Shown in pieces: positions 272 to 2,938 of a stretch of 2,991 nt of DNA (position 1 is its first letter; each line of letters starts with the position of its first letter). The DNA is taken from NCBI RefSeq assembly GCF_003334335.1, contig NZ_QOWQ01000087.1; one strand, given 5' to 3'. Under the pieces are notes generated by a model that saw nothing but the letters and a program-made list of their open reading frames with translations, was not told where the DNA came from and made no database searches. Made by a program: the position numbers and the translations under genes. This stretch comes from Escherichia coli. Its GTDB lineage: Bacteria > Pseudomonadota > Gammaproteobacteria > Enterobacterales > Enterobacteriaceae.

Positions 272-697
272 TCAATGCACGACAACAGCATTACCAGGCT
301 GACCACCACTGTTAGTCAGGGTGCCCCAGGCGATCGCCGCTGCGACAAAATCATCCACATCTTTCACCAGCCGATCCCTCCGTTCGACGATCTCACGGTA
401 ATATTCAGAGCTGTGACTGCGCATACGGGCCACCAGCAGAGGCGGCATTGCCTTTTCGATCGCCGGTAACAGAGCCTGAATTTTTTCAACAGCATCAGGG
501 GTGTCTTTATCCAGCCAACGGAAAATTTTCTGGGTATTACGAGCCAGGGCTTCCGGATGGCTGTCGTCGTACAGTTCCGGGAACGTCATTCCCAGCTCGA
601 AATACGCTTTGGTAATTTTCGCAGCCGGTACTTTTTCGCCGTCCGGATGCGCCCAGACATTCATCGCCATGCGGATGTGTTCATGCTTGATTTTCAT
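272..697 (-). CDS. ydaT: YdaT-family protein (historically annotated as toxin YdaT; reported as a CII-like regulator in Rac-type prophages)
   Basis: 141-aa ORF. AGGAG lies 8 nt upstream of ATG at 697..695. N-terminus MKIKHEHI... and the length match YdaT as I recall it. Its start overlaps the 3' end of the upstream Cro-like gene by 17 nt, the typical ydaS-ydaT arrangement. Confidence 0.7.
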   Translation of the reverse strand: MKIKHEHIRMAMNVWAHPDGEKVPAAKITKAYFELGMTFPELYDDSHPEALARNTQKIFRWLDKDTPDAVEKIQALLPAIEKAMPPLLVARMRSHSSEYYREIVERRDRLVKDVDDFVAAAIAWGTLTNSGGQPGNAVVVH

Positions 698-962
698 GAA
701 TCAAGCTCCTAGAAAGTGGTTGTGTTAACGTTTTGGTATCTTCCAGCTCGGGCCAAATATTCATCCAATCAAAAGGCCTTAGTTGCTGACGTGTAACTTC
801 ACCATTACTGGCTCGCTCAATAAGGACACATAACGATGCCCCTAACACTTGACCTTTACTCAATGCTTTTCTTAGATAACCGATGCTGGTATCACACTCG
901 CATGCAAACATACGCTGTTCATCTGACGAAAGAGAATTGAGAAATATTCTTAATTCTTCCAT
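681..962 (-). CDS. Cro-like HTH regulator of the YdaS/COG4197 type, first gene of the rightward-equivalent early operon
   Basis: 93-aa ORF. AAGGAG (973..968, minus strand) lies 5 nt upstream of ATG at 962..960. The protein has a C-terminal motif ...QQLRPFDWMNIWPEL... that I associate with the YdaS/Cro-like family. It is divergent from the repressor gene across a 100-bp operator-bearing spacer. Confidence 0.75.
   Translation of the reverse strand: MEELRIFLNSLSSDEQRMFACECDTSIGYLRKALSKGQVLGASLCVLIERASNGEVTRQQLRPFDWMNIWPELEDTKTLTQPLSRSLIHENQA
686..705. promoter_or_regulatory. Perfect inverted repeat CTTGATT-N6-AATCAAG centred on the ydaT-like start codon; candidate protein-binding dyad
   Basis: Sequence cttgatt ttcatg aatcaag at 686-705 has 7-bp perfect arms and a 6-bp spacer. 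It overlaps the ydaT ATG (695-697, minus strand) and sits next to its RBS. I recall a TTGATT-N6-AATCAA site being reported for YdaT-type proteins, but this is from memory and unverified. Confidence 0.4.
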
Positions 963-1062
963 AGCTACTCCTTAGTAAACACAGCAAAGAATACCCGCAG
1001 GTAAACAAAAGTCAATACCCACAGGTTGTTTACCTTGCGGTAATCGCATCTATTATTTACCT
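963..1062. promoter_or_regulatory. Divergent promoter/operator region between the Cro-like and repressor genes, with three TACC-N4-GGTA-type operator sites
   Basis: Sites TACCCGCAGGTA (992-1003), TACCCACAGGTT (1016-1027) and TACCTTGCGGTA (1031-1042). Candidate minus-strand promoter for the Cro-like gene: -35 TTGACT (1015..1010), 16-bp spacer, -10 TATTCT (993..988). Candidate plus-strand promoter for the repressor: -35 around TTGTTTACC (1026-1034), -10 TATTAT (1051-1056) ending 6 nt before the ATG, with no SD, suggesting a leaderless transcript like lambda PRM. Promoter calls are by eye only. Confidence 0.5.
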
Positions 1063-1482
1063 ATGGACAAATATGAATTTAGACGACAGCAACTCATCAA
1101 AATTCGTGATGAGAAATGCGATGGTAAAGCGGTTAACGTGGCCAGAAAGATCGGGCGCGAGCCTTCTTATGTATCAAGAATGTTGTACCCAGAGGGGAAA
1201 AAGGGAAAAAAACGGATCGCTGATGATATGGTGGAGATTATCGAAGAGTCCTTTGGGTTACCCCGGGGATGGATGGATGGTATCGTTTCATCATCAACGA
1301 ACACAGCCTCCAGTTATGAAACAAGGGTTCTAACGCCACGACAACGTATTTTTTTAGATCTCTTAGACGAACTGCCAGAAAGTGAAGCGGATAAATTATT
1401 AAAAACTCTTGAAGAGAAAAAACAGTATTACAATATGATCTACGAAGAAATCCGTAAAAAGAAAGCACAAAACGCATCATAG
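1063..1482 (+). CDS. Prophage CI-type repressor (DicA/RacR-like); N-terminal HTH and C-terminal helical dimerisation-like region
   Basis: 139-aa ORF divergent from the Cro-like gene. The N-terminal half contains the phage-repressor motif ...GKKRIADDMVEIIEESFGLPRGWMDG.... The C-terminal ...LTPRQRIFLDLLDELPESEADKLL... resembles the C-terminus of E. coli DicA as I recall it. No SD precedes the ATG, consistent with a leaderless repressor mRNA. Confidence 0.8.
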   Translation: MDKYEFRRQQLIKIRDEKCDGKAVNVARKIGREPSYVSRMLYPEGKKGKKRIADDMVEIIEESFGLPRGWMDGIVSSSTNTASSYETRVLTPRQRIFLDLLDELPESEADKLLKTLEEKKQYYNMIYEEIRKKKAQNAS

Positions 1483-2885: not shown

Positions 2886-2938
2886 TTTCTGGTGACGTTT
2901 GGCGGTATCAGTTTTACTCCGTGACTGCTCTGCCACCC
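2886..2938 (+). ncRNA. dicF: DicF small RNA homologue (prophage-encoded ftsZ-targeting sRNA), with its T-run immediately downstream
   Basis: Sequence tttctggtgacgtttggcggtatcagttttactccgtgactgctctgccaccc matches the 53-nt E. coli K-12 DicF as I remember it at 52 of 53 positions (K-12 ...ctgccgccc, here ...ctgccaccc), followed by ttttt. Genomic context fits the Qin order dicA - ydfABC - dicF - dicB: a repressor and small ORFs upstream on the same strand. Confidence 0.7.

Follow-up and report, generated by a model that had tools for sequence, protein, structure and literature searches.

In the Escherichia coli prophage DNA examined here (2,991 nucleotides of contig NZ_QOWQ01000087.1, referred to as the window), a perfect TTGATT-N6-AATCAA dyad sits on the start codon of a ydaT-like gene. 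This position raises the question of whether the dyad serves ydaT itself, through autoregulation or through control of its translation or transcription as proposed in the first-pass annotation, or whether its overlap with the start codon has another origin.

The dyad and its genetic context

The core of the dyad (687–704) matches the YdaT operator consensus at 12/12 positions, with 0 mismatches. It reads TTGATTCATGAAAATCAA on the gene strand, and is contained in the plus-strand sequence TCATGCTTGATTTTCATGAATCAAGCTCCT at 681–710. The 7-bp arms described in the first-pass annotation (686–692 and 699–705) were confirmed, and a repeat finder extended them to a true length of 8 bp, giving a palindrome at 685–706 with arms GCTTGATT (685–692) and AATCAAGC (699–706) around a 6-nt spacer. 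The outer GC pair of these arms is specific to the cro module of the window, as the outer bases differ between modules. Read on the minus strand, the ydaS/ydaT junction is AGGAG-C-TTGATT-CATGAA-AATCAA-G, in which the ydaT-like ATG (697..695) lies inside the spacer and the Shine-Dalgarno sequence AGGAG (706..710, minus strand) lies 8 nt before the ATG and adjoins the outer end of the left arm. The dyad is thus indeed placed on the start codon and ribosome binding site, as originally noted. None of 200 dinucleotide-preserving shuffles contained a perfect dyad, the analytic chance expectation (~2991/4^12) is roughly 2e-4, and 687–704 is the sole perfect site both in the window and in 21 kb of surrounding prophage.

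Other candidate sites were tried and rejected. The only other match within 2 mismatches in the window, GTGATTATTTCAAAACAA at 2245–2262, is at chance level as a second YdaT site (11 of 200 shuffles gave at least two such matches) and lacks a –10 element at the conserved offset described below. On the cro side, no YdaT site matching at 8/12 positions or more was found within 100 nt of the dyad, and a lone AATCAA at 767–772 is without a partner half-site. A search of the 21 kb of prophage for extra sites of the lambda PI/PaQ type returned only the symmetric CTGATTcacgcgAATCAG, whose 10/12 match is again at chance level; it is located outside the window, within a DUF1627 gene (L001 7331–7348), and no –10-like hexamer accompanies it at that offset.

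The ydaT-like gene (272..697, minus strand; ORF list) encodes a CII analogue of 141 aa with an N-terminal POU-type helix-turn-helix domain and a tetramerisation helix. This protein matches the crystallised CP-933P YdaT (PDB 8bt1, E=7e-83) as well as PDB 3c4r (E=2e-76), and differs from 8bt1 by a single substitution (I73/M) across residues 2–118, a span that takes in the DNA-binding domain (residues 1–96). It carries the invariant Arg60 and Trp61 and is named 'toxin YdaT family protein' in RefSeq. Its earlier assignment as a CII-like member of the YdaT family is supported by the 8bt1 match together with a match to the Pfam family YdaT_toxin (PF06254). Upstream lies a ydaS/cro-like gene (681..962, minus strand; 93 aa), a RefSeq 'transcriptional regulator' with a weak match to Pfam YdaS_toxin (PF15943, E=1.4e-5), which overlaps ydaT by 17 nt, translates the whole dyad as LIHENQ and ends at a stop codon at 683..681. 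NCBIfam returned no family match for either YdaT or YdaS. The divergent repressor-like gene (1063..1482, plus strand; 139 aa) occupies the position equivalent to that of paaR2 and racR, and its product yielded no Pfam match and a weak, sub-threshold similarity to the DicA C-terminus in NCBIfam.

A lambdoid prophage of E. coli JE86-ST05 matches the window at 100% identity; it is integrated beside yccA, and its genes include an integrase, dicB, Q, RusA and O/P-like replication genes. DNA similar to the ydaS-ydaT region is present in 3065 of 5426 complete E. coli genomes. Several other features of the window were observed in passing. A PRM-like promoter (TTTACC-16-TATTAT; 1029–1056, plus strand) stops 7 nt short of the repressor ATG (1063) and would yield a leaderless repressor mRNA, as reported for lambda cI and PaaR2, and a divergent PR-like promoter (TTGACT-16-TATTCT) is found at 1015..988. 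Directly after the repressor gene, a palindrome with perfect 16-bp arms (TACCCATAGGTATTTA/TAAATACCTATGGGTA, 1525–1561) has an ACCC-N3-AGGTA motif in common with imperfect inverted repeats of the ydaS-repressor intergenic region (989–1045), and these repeats probably serve the 139-aa repressor, the cro-like protein or both as operators of the OL and OR type. A DicF sRNA gene (2887–2938, plus strand; Rfam RF00039, full-length, 70.1 bits, E=1e-14) lies upstream of the prophage dicB. Finally, at least 4–5 copies of (C)GTGACA(T), recurring every 10 nt except for one 22-nt gap, occur at 16–77, inside the 5′ part of an O/DnaT-like replication gene on the minus strand; these could be iteron-like origin or protein-binding repeats.

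Published YdaT operators and conservation of the dyad

The first-pass annotation had put forward TTGATT-N6-AATCAA as the recognition sequence of a YdaT-type protein, and the literature bears this out. EMSA, DNase I footprinting, ITC and native mass spectrometry established that YdaT of CP-933P, a cryptic prophage of E. coli O157:H7, binds a 25-bp region containing 5′-TTGATTN6AATCAA-3′ (O_M) at the ydaS/ydaT junction (Prolic-Kalinsek et al. 2023, PMC9986795). The same study describes two weak sites flanking O_M (O_L and O_R), reports that at higher YdaT concentrations the footprint widens to about 95 nt and includes O_L inside ydaT, states that O_M covers an alternative transcription start, and terms YdaT a 'repressor' (PMC9986795). 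In the Rac prophage of E. coli K-12, the YdaT-box is ATGATTCATGAAAATCAA, whose spacer likewise contains the ydaT ATG (Wons et al. 2025, PMC11879457), and the YdaT proteins of Rac and CP-933P cross-bind each other's boxes (PMC11879457). With CP-933P YdaT footprinted at this junction and the Rac box holding the ydaT ATG, the suggestion that the dyad is a self-binding site likewise holds.

With regard to function, YdaT turns on an otherwise silent reverse promoter, PRE933P, in CP-933P (Jurenas et al. 2021, PMC8630535). Because the 120-bp PRE933P reporter extends only from 18 nt before to 84 nt after the dyad, as placed by the reporter primers (PMC8630535), the YdaT-dependent promoter must adjoin the dyad. 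In Rac, reverse transcription and racR expression are activated up to 29-fold in a manner that depends on the box, and mutating it abolishes the ~29-fold YdaT-dependent activation of reverse transcription toward racR while hardly altering ydaT expression (PMC11879457). The YdaT-dependent Rac promoter was assigned by Wons et al. to PracR4, a BProm-predicted TTGACG/TACGCT pair with a 21-nt spacer located ~190 bp from the box (PMC11879457).

The O_M oligonucleotide (supplementary oligonucleotides of PMC9986795) agrees with 681–704 of the window over its nt 1–24, without any difference, and an O_L equivalent identical to the published oligonucleotide CCGGATGCGCCCAGACATTCATCGCC is found at 643..668, inside the ydaT coding sequence. 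The O_R oligonucleotide has no counterpart in the window, owing to the different cro module. An E. coli locus (L008) with paaR2-like, relB and parE genes, which carries the published oligonucleotides exactly, stood in for CP-933P; the published O_LM oligonucleotide contains one T more than the genome and therefore matches inexactly, but becomes an exact match to L008 when that T is removed. Experiments on relatives of the window have demonstrated that a near-identical protein binds this very sequence and that YdaT activates reverse transcription.

Across the family, GATTCATGAAAATCA is invariant in 88 loci, comprising 80 viral contigs (selected for YdaT of at least 87% identity and representing 21 distinct upstream contexts) and 8 E. 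coli loci with differing cro-like and repressor modules, in which similarity ends a few bases upstream of GATTCATGAAAATCA. Among the 80 viral contigs the left arm reads TTGATT (36), ATGATT (35), GGGATT (6) or GTGATT (3), with the spacer and right arm invariant, and it is kept beside many unrelated cro tails and in different reading frames. The two outermost left-arm bases co-vary with the cro module (TT/AT/GG/GT). A mosaic boundary was also seen at ~702–709, where megablast alignments to many E. coli prophages with other cro/repressor modules end.

Eight distant loci were then drawn from phage genomes in which homologues had been found by tblastn. Klebsiella phage Kp4882-1, whose YdaT is 33% identical and begins with MEIK, carries CTGATTgatggaAATCAA, which is placed as in the window but differs in its spacer. 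In Pectobacterium phage ZF40 (CTGATTatcaagAATCAA) and Stenotrophomonas phage BUCT708 (CTGATTacgcttAATCAA) the dyad lies in non-coding DNA, 36 and 41 nt upstream of the start codon, respectively, and mEp237 (10/12 match) and HK639 (9/12 match) carry a dyad 48 nt inside the annotated gene. An 11/12 match within ±300 nt was found in 5/8 distant loci, compared with ~1e-3 expected per locus. In mEp237 (L093 568–585) and HK639 (L096 547–564), the dyad and its –10-like partner are located inside the CII-like ORFs, at an in-frame ATG (M17), and the annotated CII-like starts in these two phages may be too far upstream.

The first-pass annotation had also allowed that the dyad might simply be forced by conserved coding sequence at the gene junction. 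The non-coding dyads of ZF40 and BUCT708, together with the altered spacer of Kp4882-1, lead us to reject such a coding constraint, and this comparison of sequences marks the dyad as a cis element conserved in the YdaT family and not a by-product of coding.

A candidate reverse promoter at fixed spacing

The antisense (plus strand) sequence beyond the dyad was compared among 96 loci, grouped into 19 clusters at <70% ungapped identity. In all 19 clusters, whose cro-side sequences are unrelated, the antisense strand carries a TAnnnT hexamer starting 21–23 nt past the dyad; at other offsets the background frequency is 0.01 per position (binomial P ~1e-29, or ~1e-27 after correction for the choice of offset, the 19 clusters being phylogenetically not fully independent). 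The hexamers at this offset include TACAAT in CP-933P, TATGAT in Rac, TATCAT in Kp4882-1, TACGCT in ZF40 and TAACGT in the window. An extended –10 TG accompanies the hexamer in 7 clusters, exclusively where the hexamer matches TATAAT at four or fewer positions; among such hexamers with C or T as the fifth base it is present in 7 of 10, and the hexamers matching at 5/6 positions (TACAAT, TATGAT, TATCAT) all lack it.

In the window, the predicted extended –10 of the YdaT-dependent, PRE-like promoter is TG-T-TAACGT at 723–731 (plus strand), with the TG at 723–724 and TAACGT, which matches the –10 consensus at only 3/6 positions, at 726–731. The 19-cluster antisense comparison, window included, showed no –35 consensus at the PRE-like promoters. 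A generic sigma-70 scan found no promoter around the dyad and returned only the divergent PR-like/PRM-like pair in the 963–1062 intergenic region, a result that is expected for an activator-dependent promoter. From the sequence, we infer a start site near 738, ~7 nt past the hexamer. Given such a start, the centre of the dyad (695.5) would fall at about –42, and the proximal half-site would span roughly –39 to –34. A site centred near –42, over the –35 region, is the geometry of a class II activator.

The distance from the dyad to the ydaT start codon varies among relatives (–7, –36, –41, +48), whereas the distance from the dyad to the hexamer is constant. This suggests that the dyad belongs to a PRE-type promoter and overlaps the start codon only incidentally, and bears directly on the proposal that the dyad autoregulates ydaT or otherwise controls it: relatives keep the antisense –10 spacing and not the start-codon overlap, YdaT activates PRE933P in CP-933P, and mutation of the Rac box leaves ydaT expression unchanged but abolishes reverse activation toward racR. 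That proposal is therefore not supported.

We consider it highly probable that the dyad is YdaT's own high-affinity operator, from which the protein activates an adjacent reverse PRE-like promoter directed toward the repressor gene. Under this model, YdaT would be made from the PR-like transcript, after ydaS, and the YdaT tetramer would bind the inverted repeat via two POU-type helix-turn-helix domains. As the dyad would overlie the –35 region of a weak plus-strand promoter (extended –10 at 723–731, start at ~738), bound YdaT would most likely recruit or stabilise RNA polymerase there. The resulting transcript would run antisense through the cro-like ydaS and, ~325 nt on, reach the repressor-like gene at 1063, its presumed target; transcription of this gene would then tip the switch toward lysogeny (the repressed state), in the way CII acts at lambda PRE. 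Inferred in this model are where the –10 and the start lie, the class-II-like geometry, and operation in the window's prophage, whose cro and repressor modules are unlike those of CP-933P and Rac.

A different reading is that YdaT, bound over its own start codon, blocks RNA polymerase arriving from the PR-like promoter or otherwise lowers ydaT transcription. The dyad does cover the ydaT ATG and adjoin its Shine-Dalgarno sequence, and the 'repressor' label, as well as the ~95-nt footprint reaching O_L at higher YdaT concentrations (PMC9986795), an O_L that the window has kept, would fit such direct autoregulation. However, ydaT expression hardly changed in the Rac experiments (PMC11879457), the dyads of ZF40 and BUCT708 lie 36–41 nt upstream of the start while keeping the antisense –10 spacing, and it is the promoter geometry rather than the start-codon overlap that is conserved. 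Direct autoregulation is therefore unlikely, and if YdaT does lower ydaT expression, it more likely does so indirectly, via convergent PRE-like transcription. Acting instead at the level of the mRNA, the dyad could form a hairpin with an 8-bp stem and the AUG in its loop (GCUUGAUU/AAUCAAGC), restricting independent initiation at ydaT and coupling its translation to the ribosomes that finish ydaS: these would terminate 14 nt downstream of the AUG, inside ydaT, and would melt the stem, which in the module of the window has a predicted centroid energy of –9.2 kcal/mol. This strong stem is nevertheless confined to the window's module. Predicted folding energies of the corresponding sequences reach just –4 to –6 kcal/mol in CP-933P, Rac, the GGGATT variants and Kp4882-1, with only Kp4882-1 retaining a dyad stem (5 bp) and the others adopting different pairings; the 66-nt context is no stabler than its shuffles (z = –0.9); and the dyads of ZF40 and BUCT708 exclude the start codon. 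We thus rejected the hairpin as a conserved feature, regard it as an improbable explanation of the dyad, and see it at most as a secondary, module-specific effect.

The dyad might also carry no regulatory meaning of its own, being forced by the ydaT and ydaS frames (MKIK / LIHENQ) or marking a patch where cro/cII modules recombine. Indeed, its right arm corresponds to ydaT codons 2–4 (K-I-K) within an MKIKHEHI stretch that is kept even in the 33%-identical Rac YdaT, and megablast homology breaks in or beside the dyad, at ~702–709, with the outer left-arm bases following the cro module. Against this stand the left arm retained beside unrelated cro tails in different frames, the non-coding dyads of distant phages, the Kp4882-1 dyad with its different spacer and MEIK N-terminus, the 11/12 matches in five of the eight distant loci where ~1e-3 per locus was expected, and the direct binding and mutational evidence already published (PMC9986795, PMC11879457). 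As a sole explanation this by-product reading is refuted, and we hold it to be extremely improbable.

Returning to the preferred reading, an operator that activates an adjacent reverse promoter, the published promoter positions do not all fit such adjacent geometry, with PracR4 lying ~190 bp away and O_M reported over an alternative start. In Rac, the TATGAT hexamer (L002 1652–1657) is found 21 nt from the YdaT-box and PracR4 at L002 1456–1488. Because the Rac reporter also held the proximal TATGAT, the Rac data do not separate a TATGAT promoter from PracR4. The fixed spacing suggests that the Rac model of 'activation from a distance' be re-examined, and argues for an adjacent PRE-type promoter in Rac. 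We lean, with some reservation, toward the view that the YdaT promoter adjoins its box throughout the family, Rac included, with a –10 starting 21–23 nt beyond a dyad centred near –42 and YdaT acting as a class-II-type activator at a genuine counterpart of PRE, and that the window dyad might double as an mRNA hairpin around the ydaT AUG.

This spacing, fixed in all 19 unrelated cro contexts and in five genera, offers a simple, testable promoter model for the CII analogues of the YdaT type. This model would explain why the site overlaps the start codon of its own activator, and the spacing rule lets annotators mark PRE-like promoters in lambdoid prophages that carry ydaT.

Comparison with CP-933P, Rac and lambda

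The window dyad is an already known element, another copy of the CP-933P O_M and the Rac YdaT-box, and the fixed family-wide spacing between dyad and –10-like hexamer, as seen in the sequence comparison, would be the only, mildly new result. The likeness to CP-933P O_M comprises the dyad and its ydaT-side flank (681–704 and 643–668), a near-identical YdaT, and the position at the ydaS/ydaT junction. The two loci differ in their cro-side sequence from base 705 onward, in the O_R that the window lacks, and in their hexamers (TG-T-TAACGT in the window, TACAAT in CP-933P). Moreover, the repressor of the window is an unrelated 139-aa protein and not PaaR2, and no paaA2-parE2 toxin-antitoxin pair is present.

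With the Rac YdaT-box, the window shares the spacer CATGAA with the ydaT ATG, the right arm, and the activating role for reverse transcription toward the repressor. However, the Rac left arm is ATGATT (an 11/12 match), and Rac YdaT is only 33% identical to that of the window. Rac YdaT sites are also found in the racR-ydaS intergenic region and at host rcsA, whereas nothing comparable stands out in the window. The activated promoter was placed by the Rac authors ~190 bp away, although TATGAT lies 21 nt from the Rac box.

The comparison with lambda CII at PRE concerns layout. Lambda CII recognises the direct repeat TTGC-N6-TTGC. In lambda, as in the model proposed here, the activator is encoded just downstream of cro, and its site at the cro/cII junction lies over the –35 region of a weak leftward promoter whose transcript runs antisense to cro and expresses the repressor. 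However, CII binds its direct repeat as an asymmetric tetramer, whereas YdaT binds an inverted repeat as a 222-symmetric tetramer, and the window protein matches YdaT structures and not CII. YdaT has been described as not structurally related to CII (PMC9986795), although a similar architecture and recognition helix have also been argued (PMC11879457). Because of its inverted repeat and the POU-type fold of its activator, the window element resembles lambda CII-PRE in its way of working yet falls outside the CII-PRE system.
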